The position numbers and the translations under genes are program-made. Positions 13,857-59,258 of a stretch of 64,000 nucleotides of DNA are shown here, one piece after another (positions within the stretch are counted from its first letter, which is position 1; every line of letters begins with the position of its first letter). The stretch lies in the sequence record DRR723986_3008, one strand, 5' to 3'. The notes beneath the pieces were generated by a model, which saw only the letters and a list, made by a program, of their open reading frames with translations, was not told the origin of the DNA and ran no database searches.

Positions 13857-15038
13857 TTATAATTTAGCCCGGACTAAATGCTCGTTCGCCTCATCACGGT
13901 GTTTTTTCAGATATTTCATAAACGGTGTACCACCCGTTCCCACGTCTGATGCATTGCCGTACCCTCCTTTTGACTGCTTGTTTATGTAACTGGCAGCATA
14001 TTCCAGATGGCGCGTTCTAAACTGCGAAAGCTTGGTGACATTTTCGTTGTATAAGTCTGTAAGAACCTCAGAATCGGCATTTTTAACAAAAGCACGCAAA
14101 TTGCTATTAACGCGAATGTCCTCAATGAAGCGCCGATGCGCGGGTGGGCGGTATTCATGCAGCTCGTCCAGATACTGCCTTAACGGATCATTGGCATGGT
14201 CAATGCCTAAAAAGGCATCTACCGATGGCACAATGGATGACTGTGACCCGGTTTGCCCCCGAAAAGCTTGCGGCAGTCCTTTCGTTTCTTTAACACCTTC
14301 ATATACAAGGCCTTCACCCAGCGCCGGGTTATCTTTCCAGCCATGAATCCACGGGCGAACACGGTGAAAATACACATAAGGGTCACAGCGTTCAGGCATA
14401 CGATCGAAAATAGCGTTGATATCATCCCAAACCCCCGACATATTCCCCAGACCCGCTTTAACAAAGGCATAGTCTCCGCAGGTTGCCGCATTAATCATGC
14501 CCGGCATAGCGGCCAGCATTTCGCCGGCCCTCGCCTCAATAGCCACGTGAATAATAACAAACCACGCCTCGTCTTGCCCGCCGATAAAAGGCTGAATCAT
14601 GTGAATGTTGGAAAGGTCAAGCGCTTTGGTGCTATCAACCCGGCCCCAATTATCAAGAACATAGCCTGAATAGGGCAATAGCGGCTTTTGCCCAATTGAC
14701 TTGGCTAACTGCCAAATGGGCAGCGCCAAGCACTTTGGCAAGCTTTTCGGCGCGCTGTCTTCCCCCCACACATAAGCTTGCACCATGAAAGAATAATGCA
14801 CCATGGCAACACGCTGCTCTGCCTCACTGGCTTGCGCGCAAAAGTTCGTCAAATCAACACAGTCAATCCTTTCAAGATGCTTTCGCACCTCACCAGTTGG
14901 CACCAGCTTCGGCAATGCCATTGCTGTGTGAACGACGGGCTGTAGAAACTGTGGCAACGTCACTTGTTCAGGGTCAATGGACGATAAAAACCCTCGGTCT
15001 GCTGAAATTCCATAAGTCGCCAGATCTGACATCGACAT
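13857..15038 (-). CDS. Indoleamine 2,3-dioxygenase family heme protein
   Basis: YVLDNW, FHRVRPWIHGW, FRGQTGSQSS, proximal His in FRTRHLEYAASYI, GTGGTPFMKYL. Confidence 0.88.
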   Translation of the reverse strand: MSMSDLATYGISADRGFLSSIDPEQVTLPQFLQPVVHTAMALPKLVPTGEVRKHLERIDCVDLTNFCAQASEAEQRVAMVHYSFMVQAYVWGEDSAPKSLPKCLALPIWQLAKSIGQKPLLPYSGYVLDNWGRVDSTKALDLSNIHMIQPFIGGQDEAWFVIIHVAIEARAGEMLAAMPGMINAATCGDYAFVKAGLGNMSGVWDDINAIFDRMPERCDPYVYFHRVRPWIHGWKDNPALGEGLVYEGVKETKGLPQAFRGQTGSQSSIVPSVDAFLGIDHANDPLRQYLDELHEYRPPAHRRFIEDIRVNSNLRAFVKNADSEVLTDLYNENVTKLSQFRTRHLEYAASYINKQSKGGYGNASDVGTGGTPFMKYLKKHRDEANEHLVRAKL

Positions 15039-45893: not shown

Positions 45894-46117
45894 CGAACCC
45901 ATTCCTCGCTGTTCGTAACAATGTAACGAAATGCGGTATGGGCCTTTACTAAAAGCCAGCAAACTTCAATGCGGTAAAAGGTGGGGCGGTTGAGACAAGA
46001 CGCGGTCAATTATCACTAAAAATAGCGCCCTATAACAATGGTTTATAACAAAATATATAGGGGTAACTCAGGTAAGCATACGGTCATTATAATGAGGTCT
46101 AAACACCCAAATTATAC

Positions 46118-46600
46118 TCATTTATTGGCGTCTGTTTTCGGGGTTTTCTCATACTCTTCAAAATCGCCAAGACTACAGCTGCCCCATGTTCTACCGAAAC
46201 TATCGAGAATAGTGATAATTTCGCCGCGACAAAGCGCACCAAAAGAATCAGCATATGCAAATCGTTCTTCGCGCATCAAACCACGGCATTCTGTGGGCAA
46301 GCGGTTCATATATCCTTTGCGGCCAATCGATTCAAAAAAGATGGTCTGATCATCAAGGATGGAAGATTGACGCAGGCTACGCATGGGCACACAGCTCTTA
46401 ACTTCACCGGTTGCTTTGAAGGCTTCCATAATACGTTTACGGCGTTTCTCACCGCGTTCTGCTAACCTGCCTTTTGGCTTAGCTTCTTGTGTTTCTTCTT
46501 TTGCAGGGTCTTTTCCCGTGTCTGCCTCTTGCGCAAGGGCGGTTGGAAGCGAAAAGGCAGCCGCTAAAACAAATACTGATAACAATCGCGGATAGGTCAC
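46118..46600 (-). CDS. Exported four-cysteine protein (DUF6491-like)
   Basis: Signal peptide after GTG 46600; CV...ILDDQTIFF...C.GL...LC.G...CSLGDF. Confidence 0.65.
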   Translation of the reverse strand: MTYPRLLSVFVLAAAFSLPTALAQEADTGKDPAKEETQEAKPKGRLAERGEKRRKRIMEAFKATGEVKSCVPMRSLRQSSILDDQTIFFESIGRKGYMNRLPTECRGLMREERFAYADSFGALCRGEIITILDSFGRTWGSCSLGDFEEYEKTPKTDANK

Positions 46601-46710
46601 ATCATTTCCCGTGTTTAATGTCCATGCTGCAGGGTGTAGCCCATATTTTATGAACGAACGCTGAACAGTAAACGAGGCTGCCTTGGCCTTGTTTTCGAGA
46701 TGACTGCCGT

Positions 46711-47217
46711 TCATAGCGTCTCTAATTCTCTTTGCATTAATGTGCGTAAATACGCGCCTAAGTTTGCCAAAACAATCTGCTCTGTTTTACCCATTTTGCT
46801 CAGTGTATCATCGAACGCTAAACCGTGCACTTGCGCTATTTGCAGTAAATAGGCGACAAAAGCATCTGCCCTAGCCCGGATCATCCAGATAAATGCGCCG
46901 TGCGGCACCGCCTGATTTACACATTCGCTGCGATAAGCCTGCACCAAATGCGGTATTAAGGTATCGCCGATATGGCGAAGACCAATACAAAAAGCTTCAA
47001 ACGGCGGAATTGGTTCACCGTCGCTATCATCGCTTTCTTGCTGACACGAAGCCACTCGCTCAAGCTCTCGCACCATAGTATCCAATTCGCGGTCCAGCCT
47101 TTCCGCCAATGCATCGCTCACTTTTTGCTCTGCAGGCGACAGGACAACGCGGCCAGAGGCTTCCATACTTTGCAAGCTGGCACTGATAAAATCGATTATT
47201 GTTGCCTGTTCAGGCAT
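46711..47217 (-). CDS. Hypothetical helical protein
   Basis: 168 aa, strong AGGAGG RBS before ATG 47217; no recognised motif. Confidence 0.65.
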   Translation of the reverse strand: MPEQATIIDFISASLQSMEASGRVVLSPAEQKVSDALAERLDRELDTMVRELERVASCQQESDDSDGEPIPPFEAFCIGLRHIGDTLIPHLVQAYRSECVNQAVPHGAFIWMIRARADAFVAYLLQIAQVHGLAFDDTLSKMGKTEQIVLANLGAYLRTLMQRELETL

Positions 47218-47371
47218 TACCCCTCCTGTGAGCCTGTCAAAAAACCCACGCATTTATGCAAACTTTTACACAGCCGTAACCTTACCGCACCAAATTTTTA
47301 GTCCAAGTGAAATATCAGCGCGTAAAGATAACCAACAACAATCAAATCACTCATGTTTCAGGACAAAACGA

Positions 47372-48142
47372 ATGTTTGACCTTTATGTATCATCCGCAAC
47401 TGTATTGGGTAGCGTCCTTCTGGCCCTCTGGATCTTGAGCATAGTGATTGGACGCGTTAGTTTTATTGACGCATTCTGGGGTGTTGGGTTTGTTGTAGTG
47501 GCCTGGACCGCAGCCACAAGCCTGGTTGAAATAGGCCCAATGCAAACCGTTGTGTTGGCACTGGTTAGCCTATGGGGTTTGCGCCTTGGGATATATTTAT
47601 TACGGCGCTTCCTTAATCACGGCGAAGACAGTCGCTACATTAGCATGACCGAAGGAAAAACCGGCATATCGCGCCACATTTTCACACTATGGGTCGTGTT
47701 TGGCCTTCAAGGTGTTTTGATGCTTATCATCAGTGCGCCCGTTATCTCGGCGTTAGCACAAACCCCGGCAGAATTGGGTGTATTTACTTATGCAGGCATT
47801 GGCGTTTGGGCGGTTGGTGCTTTCTTTGAATGGATTGGTGACCTTCAACTATCCCGGTTTAAGGCAGACAGCGCAAATCAGGGCAAGGTTCTGGATACCG
47901 GCCTATGGGCCTGGACCCGCCACCCAAACTATTTTGGTGATGCTTGCGTGTGGTGGGGCATATGGCTGGTTGGCCATGACCTGACCGTTATTTTCGCGCC
48001 AATAGTCATGACATTCATCTTGATGAAATGGTCTGGCGTACCGATGCTGGAAAAAGAATTACCAAAACGCCGACCAGCCTATGCGGACTATATCAAGCAT
48101 ACCAGCAGCTTCTTTCCTCGCCCGCCTAAAAAGACCGCCTGA
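47372..48142 (+). CDS. DUF1295 membrane protein (steroid 5-alpha-reductase-like)
   Basis: IDAFWG, WGLRLG, EDSRY, GLWAWTRHPNYFG. Confidence 0.9.
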   Translation: MFDLYVSSATVLGSVLLALWILSIVIGRVSFIDAFWGVGFVVVAWTAATSLVEIGPMQTVVLALVSLWGLRLGIYLLRRFLNHGEDSRYISMTEGKTGISRHIFTLWVVFGLQGVLMLIISAPVISALAQTPAELGVFTYAGIGVWAVGAFFEWIGDLQLSRFKADSANQGKVLDTGLWAWTRHPNYFGDACVWWGIWLVGHDLTVIFAPIVMTFILMKWSGVPMLEKELPKRRPAYADYIKHTSSFFPRPPKKTA

Positions 48143-48161
48143 CAGAAACCAAGTCTGCAAC

Positions 48162-48192
48162 AAAAAAAGGCCCCGGAAGCCGGAGCCTTTTT
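48162..48192. terminator. Bidirectional intrinsic terminator
   Basis: A7-GGCCCCGG-AAG-CCGGAGCC-T5 between convergent genes. Confidence 0.8.
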
Positions 48193-48198
48193 ACTAGT

Positions 48199-50553
48199 TT
48201 AATTTTCGTAGGTCGTGCCCTCGCCCGCCTTTTGCATCAGGCTTTTAGCCTGTTTAGATTTGAATAGCTCAAGTCGGGTGCGTACAGGCTTGCGCGGCCA
48301 ATGATTATTCTCAAGGTCTGCATCTGCCGTTTCACGGTGCGGGTCCAGCGTAATGGATTTGATTTCCTTGTCGCTGGTCACCAGTTTAATCACACTGTTG
48401 GGGTTACGACGCCATAATTGCGCAGGCCACCGACGGGTTTCACTGGTACCGTCCGTATATTCAATATTCACAATCACTGGCATCACAAGACCGCCCACAT
48501 TGGAAAATTCCAAAAAGTAAAAATTCTCTTTTGTGTTCAGCAATTCTTTTTCCCAGTCTGCCAGACTTTCAACATATTTGGCATAGCGGTCACGGTCTGC
48601 GTCCGTAACCGTATAGCTATCATTATTATTGTAAAAGTCCTGCAGTTCAGGGCGTTCAAGAATACGCCGACGGTTGTCTGCATGGCGCTGCTGCACCATG
48701 GTTTTGCCCAGTTCCTCAGCGCGCTCGCGCTTATAGGCGGCCTCCACGTCCGGGTTTTTGGTGTTTACCGTTCCCCATGTCACGCGGTCCAAAGAAATGT
48801 CTACATGGTCGGTAGAATAAAACCAACCCCGCCAGAACCAATCAAGGTCGAAGCCGGATGCATCTTCCATGGTGCGGAAAAAATCAGACGGATAAGGCCG
48901 CTTGAACATCCAGCGCTGCGCATATTCCCTGAAGGCATGGTCAAACGCTTCACGCCCCATAATGGTTTCGCGCAAAATGTTAAAGGCAACAGATGGTTTC
49001 CTGTACGCATTTTGGCCAAATTGTATCAACGACTGTGGGTCTGTCATAACCGGCATTTGGTTTTTGCTGGTCATAAAGGGCACGATAGTTTCTGGCGACC
49101 CAATATTACCGGGCCAGCCTTCTTCCCACTCACGGTGTGCTAAACCTTGCAGGTATGTATTGAAACCTTCATCCATCCAGAACCAGTCGCGTTCCGGCGT
49201 GTTCACAATCATCGGGAAATAGTTATGCCCCACTTCATGGATAATAACGCCGATAAGGCCGTATTTGGTGCCGCGCGTATAGGTACGTTTGCCGGTTTCT
49301 TTGTCTTCGGTCGGCCGCGGCGGGTTAAAACTGATCATGGGGTATTCCATACCGCTTGTTGCAGAATTAACCGACTGCGCTACCGGGTATGGATAGGGGA
49401 AAGTATATTTCGAATAGACCTCAAGCGTATGCACAACCGCCTCAGTGGAATATTTATCCCATAACGGCATGCCTTCTTCAGGGTAGAATGACATGGCCAT
49501 AATGGTTCGGCCATCACTTTCCTGATGATAGCCCATGGCATCCCAGACAAATTTGCGCGAAGAGGCGAAAGCAAAATCGCGAACATTTTCTGCCTTAAAA
49601 TTCCATGTTACTTTTGCGGTTGAGCGCTCAGCCTGATTGGCCAATGCTTCGTCGCGGGTAACAATCATCACAGGGCGGTCAGCAGTGCGGGCTTCCTCCA
49701 GCCGCTCCCGTTGGGCGCGTGTAAGCACTTGCTGGCTATTCTGCAACTCGCCGGTTGCCGCGATGATATGATCATCAGGCACAGTGATCTCAACGTCGTA
49801 GGTGCCAAACTCGGTTTGGAACTCGCCTAGTCCGTAAAATGTGCGGTTATTCCATGCCTTGGCATCCGTGTAACCTGCCACGCGTGGATACCACTGGCCA
49901 AGGTTGTAAATTTTGTTACCGTCTTTCTCAAAATGGTGCCAGCCAGAACGCTTGATCGGAATTTTTTGCGACTCAATAATGTTGTATGACCAAGCAATAC
50001 CGAATGTAACACTACTGCCAGATTGCAATACCTGCGGCAGGTCAATGCGCATCATGGTGTCAACAACGGCATGCGGCAGTGGGGCACCCTTGTTATCGGT
50101 GACCGCGGATATTTTAAACCCACCATCAAACTCCTGACGGTATTTCTCGTGCCGCAGTGCCGAGAAAGACATGCGGGTTGTTGAATTGGTTGGCTGAGTT
50201 AGGTGGTCATCGGAATGTTTGGCGAAACGGTTTTGATCCAGCCGCACCCAGATATAATCAAGCGCATGCGGGGAGTTATTTTTGTAGGTGATGGTTTCAG
50301 AGCCTGTGATCGACTGATTATCATCATTCAACTCGACCTTGATTTTATAATCAGTCTGCTGCTGCCAGTAACCGGGGCCAGGCTTGCCGGAGGCAATGCG
50401 CTGGTCATTGGGTGTTGCCAAGGCTTCATCAAGTTGGCGAAACTTATCTTCATGGTGTGGCTGCTTTGATTGCTTTATTTGTGCGCTTGCAGGACTTGCT
50501 ATTAACAATACACTCGCGACAACAATCGCAATCGCTTTAAATTGATTAATCAT
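48199..50553 (-). CDS. Secreted M1 family zinc aminopeptidase
   Basis: GMEYP, HEVGH...WMDEG (HExxH-x18-E), signal peptide after ATG 50553. Confidence 0.93.
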   Translation of the reverse strand: MINQFKAIAIVVASVLLIASPASAQIKQSKQPHHEDKFRQLDEALATPNDQRIASGKPGPGYWQQQTDYKIKVELNDDNQSITGSETITYKNNSPHALDYIWVRLDQNRFAKHSDDHLTQPTNSTTRMSFSALRHEKYRQEFDGGFKISAVTDNKGAPLPHAVVDTMMRIDLPQVLQSGSSVTFGIAWSYNIIESQKIPIKRSGWHHFEKDGNKIYNLGQWYPRVAGYTDAKAWNNRTFYGLGEFQTEFGTYDVEITVPDDHIIAATGELQNSQQVLTRAQRERLEEARTADRPVMIVTRDEALANQAERSTAKVTWNFKAENVRDFAFASSRKFVWDAMGYHQESDGRTIMAMSFYPEEGMPLWDKYSTEAVVHTLEVYSKYTFPYPYPVAQSVNSATSGMEYPMISFNPPRPTEDKETGKRTYTRGTKYGLIGVIIHEVGHNYFPMIVNTPERDWFWMDEGFNTYLQGLAHREWEEGWPGNIGSPETIVPFMTSKNQMPVMTDPQSLIQFGQNAYRKPSVAFNILRETIMGREAFDHAFREYAQRWMFKRPYPSDFFRTMEDASGFDLDWFWRGWFYSTDHVDISLDRVTWGTVNTKNPDVEAAYKRERAEELGKTMVQQRHADNRRRILERPELQDFYNNNDSYTVTDADRDRYAKYVESLADWEKELLNTKENFYFLEFSNVGGLVMPVIVNIEYTDGTSETRRWPAQLWRRNPNSVIKLVTSDKEIKSITLDPHRETADADLENNHWPRKPVRTRLELFKSKQAKSLMQKAGEGTTYEN

Positions 50554-50881
50554 ATGACGATCCCTTTTAGGCGTGTCACCCAGAAATGTTTCACTCGGCA
50601 CTGTTTTGCGGCAATATCGCTACGCCCAGCCTACTTGCCCAAACCTAAAAACACCGACAGAGTAATAAGGGCTGTGCCGCAAACGTCGCAAAGATAGCCG
50701 CTGGTGGATAGTTTGGCAATCACCGGCAAAAAGTTAGCAAAAATCACTATTTTCCCGACAAAATTCTGAAATTATTGCTGAATTCCCACATCTTTTTGAT
50801 GGTTATTTATAACTAAAGTGTTAGTATTTTTAATATTGATTATTAATTGCAAATATGTTTATCATCATTTGCAAGCGTTAA

Positions 50882-51035
50882 TCTTCCCTTAGGTTCGCTT
50901 TCAACCAACCGTCCCGGTCCTGACAGCGGGTTCGGCCCAGATAACCTGTTGGCCCGGGTTACTGGAATCTCTTTTGACCCTGAGTAAAGGCAAAAGAAAA
51001 AGGCCGCGCCTTCCCTAGGCGCGGCCTTGTATTTT
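50882..51035. ncRNA. Candidate structured small RNA
   Basis: GC-rich island with several consecutive hairpins ending in a perfect 12-bp stem, inside an AT-rich intergenic gap; family not recognised. Confidence 0.45.
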
Positions 51036-51169
51036 AATTCCAAGGTTTCTATTTTTATATTAATAGCTTACTTACCCAATTCAATTTTATTGACCGCACT
51101 CAATAACCTCGCTGTACACTCACGATAAATTACTTACCCCTCTCGTAATTCGATTTAAGGGCCACACAT

Positions 51170-53002
51170 TTGTCACTTTCCAAAACACTGGCGGACATTG
51201 AAAATACACTGGCCAAAGGCAATGCAAGGGGCGCCTTAAAAAAGTGGCTCAACGCTACTATAGAAATGCGGATAGCTTTCTTAGGAAAGAATTCAACTGA
51301 AACAAGCCAACAGTCTACAATTCAAACACTTGCAGATCAGCAAATAAAACTGTTTGAGCGCGTTCTTATCGCTTCAATTGACCTACTCACCCAAAAAGAT
51401 ATTTGTTCGGTTCTGGAAAACAAACAGCACATTTCTAATCTCTATACCATCAGCACATATGGCAGCAGTTTGAAAGCACGAGCCACTCTTTTAAGCGAAA
51501 AGCCCCTTGGCAGTGACAACGTAAACTCCACCCATGCAGTGTTAGATTTGTTGCTGTGTAGTTACGAAGACTTTGGTGCAGTTGAATCAAACTTGATTAA
51601 AAAACTCCCCGTTAATATGCGGCTGGGCTTTATTTTGGCTTTTATCGGCAATCCATTCACTTACACATCAAGCCATGAAAAGTGGCGCAGTTGGCTTTTT
51701 GATCAATTGGAATTACTGCCAGATACTTTAAACATAATTCCCTGGGCTACACTCGTAACGACCGCGGCTATGTCGTGCAGTTATGCTTCCACTGCAAAAA
51801 AGCACAAAGTCCGCGCCAAAATCAATAAAATGCTAGCTCACCGCCTACGGCGCTATCATATATCGAAATTTGACAAACGGCCCCAAAGACCAAAACCAAA
51901 GTTGTTGATCATTGCGGAACAAATGCAACCCGATCATGCAATGTATCGTTGTTATGCGCCTTCAATACGAAGTCTAAAGTTCAAATTCGATGTGACCATG
52001 ATGATCTGTCACGGAGAGGATGACGGCAGATTGTCATCAATGGTTGATGTGTTGGAAACGACCCCGATGAACCAAAGTATCGAAACGTATATTGAGAGAA
52101 TAATCCATCATCAACCTGATATCATCTACTATCCCAGCGTGGGCATGAGCTTAAACACACTCGCCGCCGTCTCCATTCGTATGGCGCCGCTTCAAATTAT
52201 GACAAACGGGCACCCTGCTACATCCATGTCAGAGGCTATGGACTATATGATTCTTGTGAACGAGGTCTTTGGTGGCGCTGAGTTTTTCAGTGAAAAAATC
52301 ATCTTGAGGTCAAAAGGCCCGCATTATGTAGGGCGTAAAATTCGGTCCCCAATACTTGTTAATATTAGAAAGCAGCCAGAGACAATTCGCGTTGCGGTTC
52401 CAGCTTACCTCAGAAAAGTGAATGTCTACTTTATCCAAGCATGTCGAGAAATTACCTCTCAATCAAAAAAGAAAGTGCAATTTGTTTTCTTTCCGAACAG
52501 GGTAGGTGCCGAGCATTGGGAGGCAAAGAAAAAACTCGAAACATTGTTACCTGCAAAGGTCTTGCCACGCACAAATTACGCAACCTACATTCAAAACCTC
52601 AATCAATGCGATATACATCTCAGCACTTTTCCTTTTGGCTCGGCAAATGGAGTTGTTGACTCTGCATTACTTGGACTACCAATTGTTAATCTAATTGGCA
52701 CGGAACCGCATTCGCGTTTAGACGCTAATCTGGTTAATCGTTATGACCAGCCTAACTGGCTAACAGCAAATACAATAGATCAATACATTGAATCAGCAGT
52801 AAAATTGATCGATGATGATGAGCTAAGAATTTCAATTACAAGCAGTATTCTTAAATCAAATCCCGCCAGCCATTTGTTGGTGGACGAAGGCACCGCTTGT
52901 CATGATTTTGCGGAATTAGTTTACCTTATATATGAAAAGCACGAGAAAATTAGCGTCAATGATCAGAAAGTATGGGACATAGACGAACTTAACGCCATCT
53001 GA
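51170..53002 (+). CDS. HMW1C/NGT-like protein glycosyltransferase (GT41)
   Basis: HAMYRCY, YYPSVGM, APLQIMTNGHPATS, FSEK, RKVN and CDIHLSTFPFGSANGVVD parallel the HMW1C motifs HS.YR, GHPATT and FPFG.TNG..D; 610 aa; TTG start. Confidence 0.8.
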   Translation: MSLSKTLADIENTLAKGNARGALKKWLNATIEMRIAFLGKNSTETSQQSTIQTLADQQIKLFERVLIASIDLLTQKDICSVLENKQHISNLYTISTYGSSLKARATLLSEKPLGSDNVNSTHAVLDLLLCSYEDFGAVESNLIKKLPVNMRLGFILAFIGNPFTYTSSHEKWRSWLFDQLELLPDTLNIIPWATLVTTAAMSCSYASTAKKHKVRAKINKMLAHRLRRYHISKFDKRPQRPKPKLLIIAEQMQPDHAMYRCYAPSIRSLKFKFDVTMMICHGEDDGRLSSMVDVLETTPMNQSIETYIERIIHHQPDIIYYPSVGMSLNTLAAVSIRMAPLQIMTNGHPATSMSEAMDYMILVNEVFGGAEFFSEKIILRSKGPHYVGRKIRSPILVNIRKQPETIRVAVPAYLRKVNVYFIQACREITSQSKKKVQFVFFPNRVGAEHWEAKKKLETLLPAKVLPRTNYATYIQNLNQCDIHLSTFPFGSANGVVDSALLGLPIVNLIGTEPHSRLDANLVNRYDQPNWLTANTIDQYIESAVKLIDDDELRISITSSILKSNPASHLLVDEGTACHDFAELVYLIYEKHEKISVNDQKVWDIDELNAI

Positions 53003-53025
53003 AGAAGTTAGTAAGCGAGGTTAAC

Positions 53026-53694
53026 TTGACTAAAGAAAGCAAGAAAATACTCCTTTTCGGCGATGGTCGATTTGCCGAGTTGGCATGGTATGTTCTGACA
53101 CATGACAGCCCCCACAATGTCGTAGCCTTTGTTGTGGATGGAGACTTTCTCAACAAAAAAAGCCTTTTCAATATTCCTGTAATAGCCTTTGAAGACTGTG
53201 TAGACAAATATGGTCCGGAAGATTTTTCAATGATTGTGCCGCTGGGGTACCAGGGCCTTAATAGGCTGAGACAAAAGAAGTATCTTGAAGCAAAATCGAA
53301 AGGCTACGGCTTTATTAGTTACGTGTCCTCTCGCGCAAGTTCATGGGGCAACGTTTCTATCGGTGAAAATTGCATGATCTACGAAAATGCTACGCTGCAA
53401 CCTTTTTCCAAAATCTCTAATAATTCGATCGTGCGAAGCAGCGTACATATATCTCATCATGTTCAAATTGAAGAACATTGCTTCATTTCAGCCGGAACTT
53501 GCATTGGCGGTAGCTCAAAAATTGGAAAATCCAGCTTTTTGGGCCTGAGTTCCACAATTCGCGATAATCTAACAGTCGCCGAAAAAACATTTGTTGCGGC
53601 AGGGTCTGTCGTAGTGAGTGACACAGAGCCAAATGGCCTATATCTTGGAGTGCCCGCGAAGAAAACAACTAAATCCGCAGATCATTCACTCTAA
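53026..53694 (+). CDS. PglD/NeuD-like sugar N-/O-acyltransferase (left-handed beta helix)
   Basis: N-terminal LLFGDGRFAE Rossmann-like domain, hexapeptide repeats, ISHH, VAAGSVV...GVPA. Confidence 0.88.
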   Translation: MTKESKKILLFGDGRFAELAWYVLTHDSPHNVVAFVVDGDFLNKKSLFNIPVIAFEDCVDKYGPEDFSMIVPLGYQGLNRLRQKKYLEAKSKGYGFISYVSSRASSWGNVSIGENCMIYENATLQPFSKISNNSIVRSSVHISHHVQIEEHCFISAGTCIGGSSKIGKSSFLGLSSTIRDNLTVAEKTFVAAGSVVVSDTEPNGLYLGVPAKKTTKSADHSL

Positions 53695-53714
53695 CTCAGA
53701 GAGATCCGGCAAAC

Positions 53715-54572
53715 ATGACTATACCCATGATAGAGCAGCCGCTTATTATCAATATGTGCCCAACTGGGCTCGTATCGACAAAAGATCAGAATATTAATAT
53801 TCCAATCTCCCGCTCCGAGATTGTTGACACAGTGCTGCGAGCTGCCGAACTTGGTGTACAAATGGTTCACTTTCACGCACGCGATGATGCCGGTAAAGCT
53901 ACTAGCGATGCAGATAAATACGCCGCCATCTTCAGTGAAATACGCAAAAATACTATGGGCAAAGATCTTGCCATATGTGTAACAACAAGCGGCCGAAAAA
54001 CACCTGATGTAAATAATAGAGCTGAAGTATTGGATATAGATGGCGCGGCAAAACCTGACATGGCGAGTTTAACATTGAGTTCATTAAACTTTATGACGCA
54101 AGCGAGTGTAAACGAACCTGATACCATTCGGGAATTAGCGCAGCGCATGAAAAAGCGCGGCATTAAACCTGAATTGGAAGTATTTGATTTAGGCATGCTT
54201 AACTTTGCAAAAGTTCTTATTCGGGAAGGCTTAGTGGAAGCGCCATATTATTTTAATATCCTACTCGGCAACATCGGAACAGCTCAAGCCTCATTGTCCC
54301 ATCTAGCCGTTTTGGTGAATGACCTCCCAGAGGGAGCCATCTGGTCTGCCGCCGGCATAGGTCGCTTCCAAAAAACCATGAGCACAGTCGGCGTTGCCAT
54401 GGCAAATGGAGTTCGTATTGGGTTGGAAGATAATTTATGGGCGAGCTATGACCCAGTCAAAACACCAGCAACCAATATCGAACTTGTACAAGGCTTGCTA
54501 GATAGCGCAACCGCAGTGGGAAGGCCTTTGATGAGGGTGCAAGATTTACGCGCCCTACTTGATCTCAATTAA
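53715..54572 (+). CDS. Beta-keto acid cleavage enzyme family (BKACE/Kce, DUF849)
   Basis: IINMCPTG, Zn ligands HFHAR and RIGLEDN, PDMASL, KPELEVFD. Confidence 0.9.
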   Translation: MTIPMIEQPLIINMCPTGLVSTKDQNINIPISRSEIVDTVLRAAELGVQMVHFHARDDAGKATSDADKYAAIFSEIRKNTMGKDLAICVTTSGRKTPDVNNRAEVLDIDGAAKPDMASLTLSSLNFMTQASVNEPDTIRELAQRMKKRGIKPELEVFDLGMLNFAKVLIREGLVEAPYYFNILLGNIGTAQASLSHLAVLVNDLPEGAIWSAAGIGRFQKTMSTVGVAMANGVRIGLEDNLWASYDPVKTPATNIELVQGLLDSATAVGRPLMRVQDLRALLDLN

Positions 54573-54589
54573 AATAACCAACTAGATGT

Positions 54590-54634
54590 AAAAAAAAGCC
54601 GCCGAGTACAATACTTAGCGGCCCTTATTTTTTT
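54590..54634. terminator. Bidirectional intrinsic terminator
   Basis: A8-GCCGCCGAGTA-CAA-TACTTAGCGGC followed by a T-rich tail, between convergent BKACE and pntB. Confidence 0.8.
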
Positions 54635-54644
54635 GCCAACAAAC

Positions 54645-56066
54645 CTAATTCAGGGATTTATTGATCTCCTCAACCATCTTCTTGGCATCGGAAAATAGCA
54701 TCATTGTATTGTCGCGGAAGAACAGCTCGTTTTCCACGCCAGCATAGCCACTGCCCATTGAGCGTTTTATGAACAATACGGTTCCGGCCTTCTCAACGTC
54801 CAGAATGGGCATGCCGTAGATAGCGCTGGTTTTGTCTGTTTTCGCGGCAGGGTTAGTGACATCGTTAGCACCAATCACAAAGGCAACATCTGCACCTGCA
54901 AACTCGCTATTTATGTCTTCCAGCTCGAAAACCTCATCGTAAGGCACTGTTGCTTCGGCAAGAAGCACATTCATGTGCCCTGGCATACGGCCAGCAACCG
55001 GGTGAATGGCGTAAGCCACATCAACGCCTTCTTCCTTCAAAATGTCCGCCATTTCCTTCAAGGCGTGCTGTGCTTGCGCCACCGCCATACCGTAACCCGG
55101 CACGATGATCACTTTACCCGCATTTTTCATAATGAAGGCTGCATCTTCGGCTGAACCTTGCTTAACAGGGCGGGTTTCCGCACCCAATGGCCCGGCAGCA
55201 GCGGCATCATCGCCGCCAAAGCCACCGAGAATAACCGAGATAAACCCACGGTTCATGGCTTTACACATAATATATGAGAGGATGGCACCGCTTGAGCCCA
55301 CTAGCGCGCCGGTGACAATAAGCGCCGTGTTTTGAAGCGTGAAACCAATACCAGCCGCAGCCCAGCCTGAATAGCTGTTCAGCATGGAAACCACCACGGG
55401 CATGTCGGCGCCGCCAATGGGAATGATCAACAAAAAGCCAATGACAAAGCTTAGGATGGTCACAACCCAAAAAACACTAACCCCGCCAACCATTGCGCTT
55501 TGGTCTACGGCAAACCAAGCAATGCCGCCTACAATCGCTGCGGCAATAACAAGATTAATCAGATGCCGGGCAGGTAGCATAATCGGCGCACCGGACATGG
55601 TGCCGTTTAGTTTAGCAAAGGCAATAACTGAGCCAGAGAATGTAATGGCGCCGATGGCGATACCAAGCGACATCTCAATTTTTGATGCCATGAACATTTG
55701 GCCCAAAGCATCGGTAATGCCAAAGGCTGTTGGATTGAGGAAAGCACTGCCTGCAACAAGCACAGCTGCCAGACCAACAAGGCTGTGGAAAGCCGCCACC
55801 AGTTGCGGCATATCGGTCATAGCAATACGGCGCGCGGTAATAAAACCAATAGCACCACCAACCAAGATTGCACCAATGATCCAATCATAGCTAACAATAT
55901 CCGGGTTCATAACCGTGGTGACCACCGCAATGGCCATACCGAGCATGCCAAAAATGTTGCCTTGTCGGCTTGTCTCCGGGCTGGATAGCCCGCGCAAACT
56001 CATGATGAAGAAAACAGCAGCGACCATATAGGCGACAGCCGTCATATCGACGAAAAACTGATCCAT
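54645..56066 (-). CDS. pntB: NAD(P) transhydrogenase beta subunit
   Basis: AFHSLVG, GGADMPVV..LNSYSG, PGYGMAVAQ, HPVAGRMPGHMNVLLAEA. Confidence 0.98.
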   Translation of the reverse strand: MDQFFVDMTAVAYMVAAVFFIMSLRGLSSPETSRQGNIFGMLGMAIAVVTTVMNPDIVSYDWIIGAILVGGAIGFITARRIAMTDMPQLVAAFHSLVGLAAVLVAGSAFLNPTAFGITDALGQMFMASKIEMSLGIAIGAITFSGSVIAFAKLNGTMSGAPIMLPARHLINLVIAAAIVGGIAWFAVDQSAMVGGVSVFWVVTILSFVIGFLLIIPIGGADMPVVVSMLNSYSGWAAAGIGFTLQNTALIVTGALVGSSGAILSYIMCKAMNRGFISVILGGFGGDDAAAAGPLGAETRPVKQGSAEDAAFIMKNAGKVIIVPGYGMAVAQAQHALKEMADILKEEGVDVAYAIHPVAGRMPGHMNVLLAEATVPYDEVFELEDINSEFAGADVAFVIGANDVTNPAAKTDKTSAIYGMPILDVEKAGTVLFIKRSMGSGYAGVENELFFRDNTMMLFSDAKKMVEEINKSLN

Positions 56067-56077
56067 GACGGCGCTCC

Positions 56078-56374
56078 CTATTTCTTTTTCTTATACATGG
56101 CGAGCATGCGCGCCGTTACGGCAAACCCCCCAAATATATTGATGGCAGCTAGGCCAATCGCGATAGCACCCAGTATTTTTGAAATGCTTGCGCCTTCAGG
56201 GCCAACCGCAATAAGGGCACCAACAATGATCACACTGGAAATAGCGTTGGTAACGCTCATCAACGGCGTGTGCAGCGCCGGAGTTACCGACCAGACAACG
56301 TAATACCCGACGAAAATCGCCATGATAAAAATGCTGAACTGCTGAATGAATGGGCTAATTACTAATTCTGTCAT
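56078..56374 (-). CDS. pntAB: NAD(P) transhydrogenase alpha subunit, part 2 (membrane)
   Basis: VTPALHTPLMSVTNAISS, NIFGGF..T.RMLAM. Confidence 0.96.
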   Translation of the reverse strand: MTELVISPFIQQFSIFIMAIFVGYYVVWSVTPALHTPLMSVTNAISSVIIVGALIAVGPEGASISKILGAIAIGLAAINIFGGFAVTARMLAMYKKKK

Positions 56375-57510
56375 TTGTCGCCTCCTGTCAGGCGTGGGTG
56401 AATGATTGCACCGTCCTTGGTTACAAGGCTTTCGGTGATAATCTCGTCTTCAAAATCTATGGCAAGCGCGCCGTCAGAGACATGCGGCGTGATAAAGTGC
56501 ATCAAGTTACGGGCATAAAGGGCCGAGGCATCCGCCGCCAAACGAGACGGCACATTCTTGTGTCCAACAATGGTAACGCCGTCTACTTCAACCGTTTCAC
56601 CTACTTTCGAAAGCGCACAGTTACCACCCATTTCCACGGCCAGATCAACGATCACACTGCCGGGCTTCATAGACTTCACCATTTCTTCGGTGATCAATTC
56701 CGGTGCCGGACGGCCCGGAATGAGCGCCGTGGTGATGGCAATGTCTTGTTTTGCAAGCGTTTCAGCGATCAGTTTAGCCTGCTTGGCTTTATATTCATCG
56801 CTCATTTCCTTAGCGTAACCGCCTGAAGTTTCAGCCTCTGCTGTCTCTTCATCTTCCACCATTACAAACTTACCGCCCAAGCTTTCAACCTGTTCTTTGG
56901 TCGAAGGCCGGACATCTGTCGCGCTTACAATAGCACCCAGGCGTTTAGCCGTAGCAATTGCCTGCAGGCCCGCAACACCAACACCCATCACCATAACTTT
57001 AGCAGCCGCAACCGTGCCTGCCGCAGTCATCATCATTGGGAAGGCCCGGCCATATGCTTCGGCAGCATCAATTACGGCTTTATATCCCGCCAAATTGCTT
57101 TGACTGGACAAAACATCCATTGATTGAGCCCGTGTTATCCGTGGAACAAATTCCATCGCAACCGCCATCAAACCAGCATCTGCGTATGCGCTCAAGCGAT
57201 CGCTGTCCACGAACGGGTTTAGCGTCGCTAACATGAGTGCGCCTTTTTTGGCTTTTGATGCGTCAGCCCCTTCAAGGCCTTGCACTGAAAAGATAACATC
57301 CGCATCACCGACAGTTGTAGCCAGGTCAGTCGCAATCTTTGCACCAGCGGCCTCATAAGCATCGTCTGTTATTGCTGCCGAGATACCGGCGCCTGCTTCA
57401 ATAACAACGTCAAACCCAAGGCCTATCAGTTTTTTTACTGTTTCCGGGGACGCTGCAACACGCTTTTCCGCATCGCGCCGCTCCCGTATCACTCCAAGTT
57501 TCATGAACAT
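56371..57510 (-). CDS. pntAA: NAD(P) transhydrogenase alpha subunit, part 1 (dI)
   Basis: RITRAQSMDVLSSQ, GVGVAGLQA, GGYAKEMS, TALIPGRPAP. Confidence 0.97.
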   Translation of the reverse strand: MFMKLGVIRERRDAEKRVAASPETVKKLIGLGFDVVIEAGAGISAAITDDAYEAAGAKIATDLATTVGDADVIFSVQGLEGADASKAKKGALMLATLNPFVDSDRLSAYADAGLMAVAMEFVPRITRAQSMDVLSSQSNLAGYKAVIDAAEAYGRAFPMMMTAAGTVAAAKVMVMGVGVAGLQAIATAKRLGAIVSATDVRPSTKEQVESLGGKFVMVEDEETAEAETSGGYAKEMSDEYKAKQAKLIAETLAKQDIAITTALIPGRPAPELITEEMVKSMKPGSVIVDLAVEMGGNCALSKVGETVEVDGVTIVGHKNVPSRLAADASALYARNLMHFITPHVSDGALAIDFEDEIITESLVTKDGAIIHPRLTGGDK

Positions 57511-57702
57511 TCCCCGTGAAACTGTTAATTCAAAATCAGGTTTCAGTATCCTCTTGTACGTACGTTACGCTCAATCAGCTTAACTAAACATCACGCAACT
57601 TTACAGCATAGGGCTACCGTTCCTGTGGATGAAAAGGTAAAGCAAATATCCGTATGAGCAAGTTTCTTTCTTTCGATTAGAGTAATAGGGAAAATTTTAT
57701 CT

Positions 57703-57717
57703 TTACCATTTTGTTAA
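57703..57717. promoter_or_regulatory. Putative CtrA box
   Basis: TTAC-N7-TTAA, one mismatch to TTAA-N7-TTAA, 80 nt upstream of the TacA-like gene. Confidence 0.5.
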
Positions 57718-57797
57718 CCGATGCCCTGAAATGATACAGCCAAGGCCCCTACAACTCGTACAGTAAAACACTATCACATCAGGCACACATAATTGTC

Positions 57798-59258
57798 ATG
57801 GCGCAAAAAACAGTTCTTATTGTTGAAGACGAGATTACCCAAAGCGCTTTGCTGGAAGGTATTATAAAGCGTGCTGGCTATAAACCACATATGGCGTTTA
57901 GCGGTGCAGAAGCCTTAAAAGCCCTCAACAGCTCACTAGGCAAAGAAGTAGATATTGTGTTGCTAGACCTTGTAATGCCCGGCATGGACGGCATCGAGGT
58001 TTTGCAAAAGATCAGGCCAATCTGGCCAAAATTGCCAGTGATCATGCTGACAGCGCAATCTTCTATCACAACAGTTGTCGACGCGATGCAGGCTGGTGCA
58101 AATGATTTTATCGTAAAACCCGCCAGCGCAGAACGCATAAGGTCAGCCGTTGATGCTGGTTTAGAAACTACCTCATTTGTCGGTGAAATTGAGCCCATGC
58201 GCAAAGGCATGGCGGCAGCCGGGTTTGCCAATTTAATCGGCGAAAGTGCAACCATGCGCCGCGCGGTTGCCTTGGCAGAGCGTGCAGCGGGCGCCAGCAT
58301 TCCGGTACTGGTAGACGGCGAATCAGGCGTCGGTAAGGAAGTATTTGCCCGTGCAATTCACGGGGCAGGCGATCGTTCAGATAAACCTTTTGTGGCTGTA
58401 AATTGCGGCGCAATCCCAGAAAATTTGGTGGAGAGTATTCTTTTTGGCCATGAAAAAGGCGCGTTCACTGGCGCAACGGAAAAACGTATTGGCAAATTTG
58501 AAGAGGCGCATGGTGGTACTTTATTCTTGGATGAAGTCGGCGAACTTCCCACCGATATTCAGGTAAAACTCTTGCGCGCCCTGCAGGAAAAAGAAATTGA
58601 CCCTGTTGGCGGGAGATCAAGCCTGCCGGTTGACATTCGCATTATCTCAGCAACCAACCGTAATTTGGCAAGCCTGGTTGCAGACGGCGCCTTTCGAGAA
58701 GATCTTTTTTACCGACTAAATGTTTATCCCATCACGTTACCGCCCCTGAGAGACCGCAAGGAGGACATACCCGCTCTCGTGTCTCATTTTTTGACGTTAC
58801 TTCCGGAAATGGAAGACTTGCCCGCAAAAACCATTTCCGCTTCCGCGTTAGCGGGTTTGGCGGCCTACCATTGGCCGGGCAATATTCGCCAATTACAAAA
58901 TGCGCTGTTTCGTGCCGTTATTTTATCCGATCATCAACAACTGGAGATCCGTGATTTTCCGCACCTTGAAAGCCATAATGCAAATTCATTGACCTTCGGC
59001 GATGAAACCAAGTTTCTGCTTACTGAACCAAACAGTAGCGCAACGCCCACTTTTTCCGCTGGCGTGACTGCCGATGATACCTTAGTTAATTTACTAGGTG
59101 ATGGTGGTCATGTCCGATCACTTGCAGATGTTGAAGCGGAAATTATTCGCCGAACCATAACCCATTATGATGGCAAAATGGCCGAAGTGGCCAGACGTTT
59201 GGGCATAGGTCGGTCAACATTATACCGCAAGTTAGATGATTATGACTTGAAACCGTAG
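57798..59258 (+). CDS. Sigma54-dependent response regulator (REC-AAA+-Fis HTH), TacA-like
   Basis: LLDLVMP, GESGVGKE, GAFTGA, WPGNIRQL, MAEVARRLGIGRSTLYRKL. Confidence 0.93.
   Translation: MAQKTVLIVEDEITQSALLEGIIKRAGYKPHMAFSGAEALKALNSSLGKEVDIVLLDLVMPGMDGIEVLQKIRPIWPKLPVIMLTAQSSITTVVDAMQAGANDFIVKPASAERIRSAVDAGLETTSFVGEIEPMRKGMAAAGFANLIGESATMRRAVALAERAAGASIPVLVDGESGVGKEVFARAIHGAGDRSDKPFVAVNCGAIPENLVESILFGHEKGAFTGATEKRIGKFEEAHGGTLFLDEVGELPTDIQVKLLRALQEKEIDPVGGRSSLPVDIRIISATNRNLASLVADGAFREDLFYRLNVYPITLPPLRDRKEDIPALVSHFLTLLPEMEDLPAKTISASALAGLAAYHWPGNIRQLQNALFRAVILSDHQQLEIRDFPHLESHNANSLTFGDETKFLLTEPNSSATPTFSAGVTADDTLVNLLGDGGHVRSLADVEAEIIRRTITHYDGKMAEVARRLGIGRSTLYRKLDDYDLKP

Follow-up and report, generated by a model that had tools for sequence, protein, structure and literature searches.

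The 64,000-nucleotide stretch of sequence record DRR723986_3008 analysed here (the window) carries a block of three genes that would give its host, a Kordiimonas-like marine alphaproteobacterium, a horizontally acquired 3.5-kb cassette for diversifying a surface glycan. [quoted passage not shown] The reading that we favour, and to which we would give about an even chance (0.5), is that the cassette makes an uncommon acyl-coenzyme A (acyl-CoA), acylates an amino sugar with it, and places the acylated sugar on a surface protein or on the glycan of such a protein. The gene families, their intact motifs, the purifying selection on the genes, the insertion site and the recurring gene pairs are observations. 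From them we infer the chemistry of each step as well as the acyl group and the acceptor.

In the proposed mechanism, BKACE would condense a pre-existing beta-keto acid with acetyl-CoA, giving acetoacetate and the uncommon acyl-CoA, and the AcT, in the manner of PerB, VioB and PglD, would use this donor to acylate a nucleotide-activated sugar, most likely at the amino group of a nucleoside diphosphate (NDP)-4-amino-4,6-dideoxyhexose. The cassette has neither an aminotransferase nor a dehydratase and is therefore not a self-contained pathway; its sugar would be drawn from elsewhere in the genome, where a DegT aminotransferase and a 4,6-dehydratase would make it. The HMW1C-like GT41 would then move the acylated sugar onto a surface macromolecule. 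The likeliest is a protein that receives its glycan in the cytoplasm, ahead of export (an RTX- or S-layer-like protein exported by a type I system, or flagellin), or a glycan already on that protein. As the sugar genes of the window's two nearest relatives suggest, the triad would be an add-on by which the same kind of sugar receives another acyl group.

Families and active-site residues

The preliminary description of this DNA, made from its letters alone, had named these three families and judged the catalytic motifs apparently intact, and both statements hold. AcT and BKACE score above their family cut-offs, the GT is placed by a full-length profile match to protein N-glycosyltransferases (NGTs), and catalytic and cofactor residues align as intact in all three proteins.

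As a single sequence the GT scores 21 bits on the Pfam GT41 model, under its cut-off of 25, and aligns to NGTs over residues 158-571 only. Profile A1, built from the GT and 23 homologues, aligns full-length to the four solved NGTs 8p0o, 8p0q, 3q3e and 8j30 (E ~1e-125), with profile positions 4-579 on residues 4-599 of 8p0o (E 9e-126), which corresponds to the complete architecture of an N-terminal all-alpha domain followed by GT-B; by this alignment the all-alpha domain is retained. The residues that contact uridine diphosphate (UDP) in ApNGT, namely K441, N521 and D525 (PMC10466321), correspond to K416, N493 and D497 of the GT, which together with H256 and H348 are invariant in 24/24 homologues, and M218, Y222 and H371 of ApNGT are kept as M201, Y205 and H348. 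The GT appears to be soluble; by eye it shows no sign of a signal peptide.

What has gone is the apparatus for reading the acceptor sequon. The sequon readers described for NGTs are R177, H214 and D215, of which H214 and D215 read the Ser/Thr at +2 (PMC10466321, PMC10507012), R177 and D215 being critical and conserved among NGTs (PMC10507012). In the GT the pair H214/D215 is replaced by T197/T198, and there is no Arg in residues 152-166, the segment aligned to R177 (the equivalent column is A157 or P162 depending on the alignment, by phmmer or MAFFT). The His-Asp pair is kept in 12/12 control homologues of Yersinia that are linked to two-partner secretion (TPS) adhesins; Asp stands in the D215 column in 16/75 GT rows, all 12 Yersinia rows included, and in just 2/49 GTs that have amino-sugar genes as neighbours. 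The peptide-site segment LGQS of NGTs is likewise replaced, by an invariant Phe-Pro-Asn. Among 77 GTs in a FastTree, the window GT and its counterpart on metagenome contig L081 form a long branch beside a Kordiimonas clade linked to DegT genes (support 88), the TPS-linked clade lying in the other half of the tree. On the NCBIfam NGTferase model (NF049992) the GT reaches 221.4 bits, the equivalog cut-off being 1000. Judged by these residues, the GT has no HMW1C- or NGT-like way of reading the Asn-X-Ser/Thr sequon, and given the non-equivalog score and the lost sequon readers the hexose transfer to Asn known of those enzymes should not be assigned to it.

On TIGR03570 (cut-off 160.8) the AcT reaches 164.5 bits; the match pairs residues 7-212 with model positions 1-202 and takes in the beta-helix as well as the N-terminal domain, which is of the type that binds nucleotide sugars in PglD and PerB. 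Its best solved relatives are PerB (4ea7), PglD (3bss, 2vhe), PglB (4m98) and VioB (7txp), all N-acetyltransferases of 4-amino-4,6-dideoxy sugars; PerB, the guanosine diphosphate-perosamine N-acetyltransferase, is the best of them, yet the identity is low (64 bits). Its H144 aligns with a PerB His, replaced by Asn in 4eaa, that we take to be the catalytic residue. The genomic context of the AcT, with a BKACE or ligase as partner and DegT genes in relatives, suggests a donor other than acetyl-CoA.

The BKACE matches PF05853 with 240.7 bits (cut-off 24.8), residues 9-284 on model positions 1-274, and falls below every NCBIfam equivalog cut-off: 212.5 against 382 for the 3-keto-5-aminohexanoate cleavage enzyme Kce (NF052387), 179.1 against 350 for 3-oxoadipate (NF053568) and 127.3 against 430 for dioxohexanoate (NF053538). 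Its HxH (H52, H54) and R234-x-G-x-E238-D239 align with Kce (2y7d), and the HxH and E-D residues are presumably the Zn ligands. At position 20 of the Kce chain, where a Glu presumably binds the substrate amino group, the BKACE has V20. The family has one Zn per active site and converts a beta-keto acid and acetyl-CoA to an acyl-CoA and acetoacetate; of 124 members tested, more than 20 accepted malonate semialdehyde, giving formyl-CoA (PMC11961710).

Recurrence, gene partners and the acceptor

The triad recurs; by the preliminary description, failure to do so would have refuted the proposal. It stands at the same site between the same flanks, syntenic, on the Joint Genome Institute (JGI) metagenome contig L081 (L081:10001-13405), where the GT, AcT and BKACE are 80, 84 and 88% identical to those of the window and the ratio of nonsynonymous to synonymous divergence (dN/dS) is 0.155, 0.085 and 0.127, respectively; the triad is under purifying selection. 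More divergent copies are indicated by homologues that lie on contigs of equal size in base pairs. On that basis all three genes share contigs of 12815 and 71711 bp (the GT on the latter being just 42% identical), GT and BKACE additionally share contigs of 118943, 3145 and 4999 bp, and AcT and BKACE share contigs of 79851, 2463, 5783, 34266, 58228 and 5722 bp with no GT among the matches listed. For the 79851-bp contig, from an alphaproteobacterial metagenome-assembled genome (MAG), adjacency is confirmed by consecutive accessions (NVJ99185.1, an acetyltransferase, and NVJ99186.1, a BKACE).

BKACE relatives were also sought in sampled genomes. At E<=1e-45 they occur in 4/401 genomes of the class of G001, all four gammaproteobacterial (L116-L119); among 56 genomes of the order of G079 the one match is G079 itself, and 401 genomes of the class of G003 gave 0 matches at E<=1e-70, a threshold that is probably too strict. 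In G079 (L106) the AcT and BKACE genes overlap by 4 nucleotides (nt) and stand beside a DegT and a GT2 gene. In one gammaproteobacterial genome (G939, L116:6772-9775) a different, 184-aa beta-helix acyltransferase is followed by a BKACE (48% identical) and a GT4, all co-oriented, and in another (L119) DegT and an HMW1C-like GT (31.5% identity) face a BKACE (46%) at a contig end. A profile search of G079 and G939 gave no HMW1C-like GT, only weak partial matches.

Relatives of the GT were collected from species-representative genomes, where 114 of 121 matching stretches encode relatives; the 80 best loci, none above 43% identity to the window GT, were retained. AcT homologues were found in 11 of the 80 by tblastn, and clustering of their 740 neighbouring open reading frames (ORFs) places within 7 kb of the GT an AcT in 18/80, a DegT in 39/80 and a WbqC-like protein in 15/80. 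Pairs of GT41 and AcT that lack a BKACE mostly have a DegT as well. It is the DesI model that gives the DegTs their best scores, under its cut-off. AcT and the WbqC-like protein (PF08889; L001, L007, L012, L027, L040 and 10 more) alternate at the position directly 3' of the GT, which suggests that the latter makes an alternative modification of the same amino sugar. At three loci (L017, L021 and L026) the slot that BKACE has in the window, after the AcT, is taken by an AMP-binding acyl-CoA ligase, followed by a GFO/IDH/MocA oxidoreductase, and at a fourth (L070) an AMP-binding/carrier-protein fusion lies beside the AcT. In a FastTree of 32 AcTs the 11/11 that are linked to a BKACE fall in one 14-row clade (support 83), 3/4 ligase-linked AcTs form a separate clade, and the fourth, that of L070, branches alone. 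From these varied partners the AcT emerges, as far as gene neighbourhoods tell, as the hub of the system, its partner being an acyl-CoA-making enzyme or none and the glycosyltransferase being interchangeable. The supply of an acyl-CoA by BKACE to the AcT, as first proposed, is consistent with the comparative data, that is, with AcT-BKACE pairs that have no GT41, with the single AcT clade and with the ligase in the BKACE slot.

The acceptor is suggested by relatives of the host. In G002 (a MAG labelled Alphaproteobacteria) and G003 (an uncultured Kordiimonas) a paralogous locus reads RTX-repeat protein (895 or 804 aa), ATP-binding cassette (ABC) component of a type I secretion system (T1SS), HlyD, DUF6212, GT2, DegT, HMW1C-like GT41, AcT and sulfotransferases, with genes for a 4,6-dehydratase-like enzyme, GT4s, a Wza-like protein and an ABC-2 transporter close by (L136:1654-7999 and L005; L135:15517-17931, L137 and L014). 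This locus may be a system for a sulfated, glycosylated protein that is type I-secreted or S-layer-like. HlyD and DUF6212 recur in 11-12 of the 80 GT loci. The genes flgK and flgL adjoin the GT41 in just 2/80 (L026, L079), and TpsA adjoins it in 11/12 Yersinia loci. Of the kinds of neighbour that the preliminary description proposed to look for, relatives have DegT, most often, and also adhesin (TpsA) and flagellar (flgK/flgL) genes; the window has none of them. HMW1C itself glycosylates its adhesin in the cytoplasm before export. The RTX/T1SS loci make a type I-secreted RTX protein a candidate acceptor, a polysaccharide being the other; flagellin or an adhesin, the targets first named, is a guess.

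The polysaccharide is the strongest competitor, and one we regard as rather unlikely. Here BKACE and AcT would act as above, and the GT41 would add the acylated amino sugar to a polysaccharide of the O-antigen or capsule type, on a lipid-linked or growing glycan. The GT41 could act so because its paralogues in G002 and G003 stand amid several GT2/GT4 genes, sulfotransferases, a Wza-like export protein and an ABC-2 transporter pair; AcT-BKACE pairs occur beside GT2 or GT4 and lipid A genes (L106, L116), and the loss of the sequon readers points the same way. These polysaccharide genes speak against a protein acceptor, yet the RTX protein and T1SS lie directly upstream of the GT41 block in the same two relatives, flgK/flgL adjoin a GT41 twice, the GT keeps the full NGT architecture with its all-alpha domain, and the characterised HMW1C-like enzymes with solved structures found here all act on proteins (PMC10507012).

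Several further observations weigh against transfer of a BKACE-derived acyl sugar to a protein, and part of them favours a simpler arrangement, in which GT41 and AcT form a functional pair that uses ordinary acetyl-CoA, BKACE being an unrelated catabolic passenger that was co-acquired and is kept by linkage. BKACE is found by tblastn in 0/80 of the GT41 loci, 18 of which have an AcT, and beside just 1/22 AcT-homologue places in 21 genomes. G001-G005, which have GT41-AcT pairs, contain no close BKACE, their best matches being 31% and 24% identical and elsewhere in the genome; BKACE is therefore, by this comparison, dispensable for a GT-AcT pair of their type. Two of the four gammaproteobacterial genomes have no sugar genes near their close BKACE homologues (L117, L118), and the family is large, with 7009 matches at E<=0.001 among 8000 candidates scored. 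Pair co-location stands on equal contig size, accession-verified for one pair only, and the trees are FastTree only, with support of 83 for the key AcT clade. Protein-family scans of the 64-kb window found no aminotransferase, dehydratase, sugar-nucleotide, flagellar or adhesin gene, so that the amino-sugar supply and the acceptor are assumed; the cassette has no enzyme that makes a beta-keto acid, so that the substrate of BKACE should be an existing metabolite; and the NeuD family also includes O-acetyltransferases, so that N-acylation is likewise an assumption. Even so, we consider the passenger explanation improbable. AcT-BKACE adjacency recurs in divergent lineages and with three different glycosyltransferase families, the two genes overlap in L106, the BKACE-linked AcTs cluster together, and BKACE is the most conserved gene of the triad between the window and L081 (88% identity, dN/dS 0.127).

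Very improbable, finally, is a variant of the preliminary framing with acylation after transfer, a true NGT that places hexose on an adhesin Asn for the AcT then to O-acylate on the protein, for which one can cite the UDP contacts kept in the GT, M201, Y205 and H348, and the lack of an aminotransferase in the cassette: against it stand the NF049992 score of 221 against 1000, the Thr pair and Arg-free segment where TPS-linked controls keep His-Asp in 12/12, the N-terminal domain of the AcT (TIGR03570 residues 7-212), which is of the type that binds nucleotide sugars, and the finding that no TPS or autotransporter adhesin gene lies in the window.

Boundaries, insertion site and neighbouring DNA

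The features of the cassette are collected in Table 1.

Table 1. The three genes of the cassette and the elements that border them, in window coordinates.
Feature	Coordinates	Strand	Remarks
Upstream region of the cassette's own	51037..51169	+	133 nt
HMW1C-like GT41 glycosyltransferase (GT), divergent clade linked to amino-sugar genes	51170..53002	+	610 aa, TTG start
NeuD/PglB/VioB-family left-handed beta-helix sugar acyltransferase (AcT)	53026..53694	+	222 aa, TTG start
BKACE	53715..54572	+	285 aa, ATG start
Hairpin terminator with flanking A- and T-runs, common to triad (+) and pntB (-)	54597..54635

The ORF coordinates confirm the layout first described, three genes on the + strand with gaps of 23 nt (GT-AcT) and 20 nt (AcT-BKACE), and the triad is indeed AT-richer than the core genes around it: GC is 42.2, 43.2 and 45.6% in GT, AcT and BKACE versus 47-52% in 11 flanking genes, and at third codon positions 41-43% versus 41-55%. 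Hairpin terminators flank the triad on both sides, and a scan found no terminator-like site on the + strand within it. The downstream terminator, also part of the first description, was overlooked by a simple scan and found by comparing folds with those of shuffled sequences: 54597-54622 with its T-run folds at -16.1 kcal/mol (z -4.2; 0/200 shuffles fold as well), and L081 keeps the element, both arms of its stem carrying changes there. Upstream, a hairpin terminator at 51000-51028, about 140 nt 5' of the GT, folds at -25.8 kcal/mol (z -5.6). The spacer 5' of the GT does have a considerable length, 568 nt, as the preliminary description had it, but it holds a conserved structured element with a strong terminator and is not the mere AT-rich filler implied there.

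That element (50826-51036, + strand), a candidate small RNA or leader, is part of the core genome and not of the triad. An invariant AT-rich box of 31 nt with a promoter-like TTGATT-18-TATCAT, a structured region and a GC hairpin terminator of 12 bp make it up, and it is conserved on L081, at the empty G002 site and, in G003, beside the M1 peptidase gene. The RNAalifold consensus of four sequences has 33 pairs, of which several are compensatory and 15 are disrupted in one sequence or another; an Rfam scan of 46000-58000 found no family, only two sub-threshold ctRNA matches on hairpins. The cassette's own upstream region (Table 1) is absent from the empty site of G002 and partly kept in L081, most strongly in the final 25 nt before the TTG start. 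A promoter scan of this region found no sigma-70 consensus. A TTGACC...TACACT pair noticed by eye 5' of the triad has a 19-nt spacer and is not claimed as a promoter.

The rest of the window encodes alphaproteobacterial core metabolism (ATP synthase, PriA, TrcR, glycolysis genes, pntAB, ccoN). Its pntB product is 95% identical to that of G002 and 89% to that of G003, and its M1 peptidase is 91% identical to that of G002. The interval from the M1 peptidase gene to pntB measures just 455 bp in G002, an empty site, and contains two unrelated ORFs in G003. The interval is thus a variable cargo site (window 50602-54644; L125:8758-9212; L126:10689-13030), and the triad is an accessory insertion in it; the G003 cargo comprises a 322-aa ORF and a 256-aa ORF with a TGxxxGIG dehydrogenase-like motif. 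The empty site in G002, the other cargo in G003, and the synteny and low dN/dS with L081 mark the triad, by comparison of sequences, as a functional insertion that was probably acquired horizontally.

The synonymous divergence (dS) of the triad from L081, 0.48-1.01, is below that of most flanking genes (1.3-3.3 or saturated; pntA2 0.67). The cassette could have been exchanged between the lineages after their split, or the low values could be an effect of codon usage.

Elsewhere in the window, 13857-15038 (-) encodes a full-length protein of the indoleamine 2,3-dioxygenase family (PF01231, 294.8 bits), which is uncommon in bacteria, adjoining an AsnC/Lrp regulator. At 46118-47253 (-), between an RND pump and a DUF1295 protein, are two overlapping ORFs of 198 and 180 aa that have no Pfam or NCBIfam match and are kept in L081, G002 and G003 (61-78% identity).

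Known systems and what the cassette would mean

The preliminary description knew of no pathway joining these three families. This holds for BKACE in the literature searched, where no link of the enzyme to sugar acylation or to glycosyltransferases was found (titles and abstracts, most subscription journals lying outside the search), but GT41, DegT, NeuD-type and acyl-activating genes have been reported together (PMC4875605) and a VioB with a dedicated acyl supply has been demonstrated (PMC3927599). Comparable islands are thus known, and what would be new is BKACE as acyl supplier. For HMW1C together with an aminotransferase, a listing of titles gave no paper on such loci.

The nearest parallel is the viosamine island of Pseudomonas syringae pv. 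tabaci (vioA, vioB, vioS, vioR, acp, vioM, vioT), which like the cassette combines an acyltransferase of the VioB/NeuD family with dedicated enzymes for a non-acetyl donor; they build a 3-hydroxybutyryl donor, the sugar is the product of a DegT-type aminotransferase, and the transferase takes only the acylated sugar, onto flagellin glycans, a logic shown experimentally (PMC3927599). Unlike the cassette, the island has its own aminotransferase and makes its donor with a KAS III, a reductase and an acyl carrier protein, and no BKACE; its VioT is a 1173-aa protein related to OrfN of P. aeruginosa (PMC3927599). The flagellin glycosylation islands of enterobacteria bring together GT41, DegT, NeuD, FkbM and acyl-activating genes, and their products are read as modified amino-sugar glycans on a secreted protein (PMC4875605); L026, L021 and L017 match their composition. 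The window cassette differs from them in lying outside a flagellar locus, and the GT41s of the islands are of the SPINDLY type, mostly fused to methyltransferase domains, with no BKACE reported there (PMC4875605).

With HMW1C, ApNGT and AaNGT (3q3e, 8j30, 8p0o, 8p0q) the GT shares its full-length architecture, the nucleotide-contacting residues and its soluble look; it differs from them in being a non-equivalog, with neither sequon readers, LGQS nor a TPS adhesin as partner, and in that the genes beside its clade make amino sugars, not UDP-hexose. The BKACE is like Kce (2y7d) in its TIM-barrel family, PF05853, and in the aligned HxH and E-D motifs; unlike Kce it has Val for Glu at position 20, a score below the cut-off and a context related to glycans rather than catabolism. 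The loci of relatives with RTX, T1SS, DegT and AcT genes also seem to us to resemble the rsaA-rsaD-rsaE-perosamine neighbourhood of Caulobacter. Caulobacter PerB uses acetyl-CoA, and to our knowledge the S-layer/T1SS/O-antigen region there has no HMW1C-like GT or BKACE.

A wider proposal, which we put forward tentatively, is that a clade of BKACEs has been recruited from catabolism to glycan biosynthesis as a one-enzyme source of rare acyl-CoA for sugar acyltransferases, drawn straight from free beta-keto acids and serving at least three glycosyltransferase families, and that in this cassette the HMW1C-like enzyme may transfer an acylated amino sugar rather than a hexose, independently of the sequon, to a secreted protein (T1SS-exported RTX- or S-layer-like, or flagellin). 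Candidate products of these BKACEs would be formyl-CoA, from malonate semialdehyde, and oxalyl-, glyceryl- or aminoacyl-CoA. BKACEs are known from catabolism and from use in synthetic pathways; if the reading of the cassette is right, the family would have a new physiological function, the provision of surface glycans with acyl donors, and BKACE with AcT would form a short route, of two genes, to sugars with unusual acyl groups. The HMW1C family would then extend beyond the Asn-glucosylation of adhesins. Many of its members stand away from adhesins, with amino-sugar genes in 39/80 loci and the sequon readers lost, and from this pairing and this loss it follows that the textbook activity of NGTs, which are popular tools in glycoengineering, probably covers only part of the HMW1C-like family. 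For the clade of the window GT, the RTX/T1SS-linked loci of its relatives would provide a natural acceptor that can be tested.

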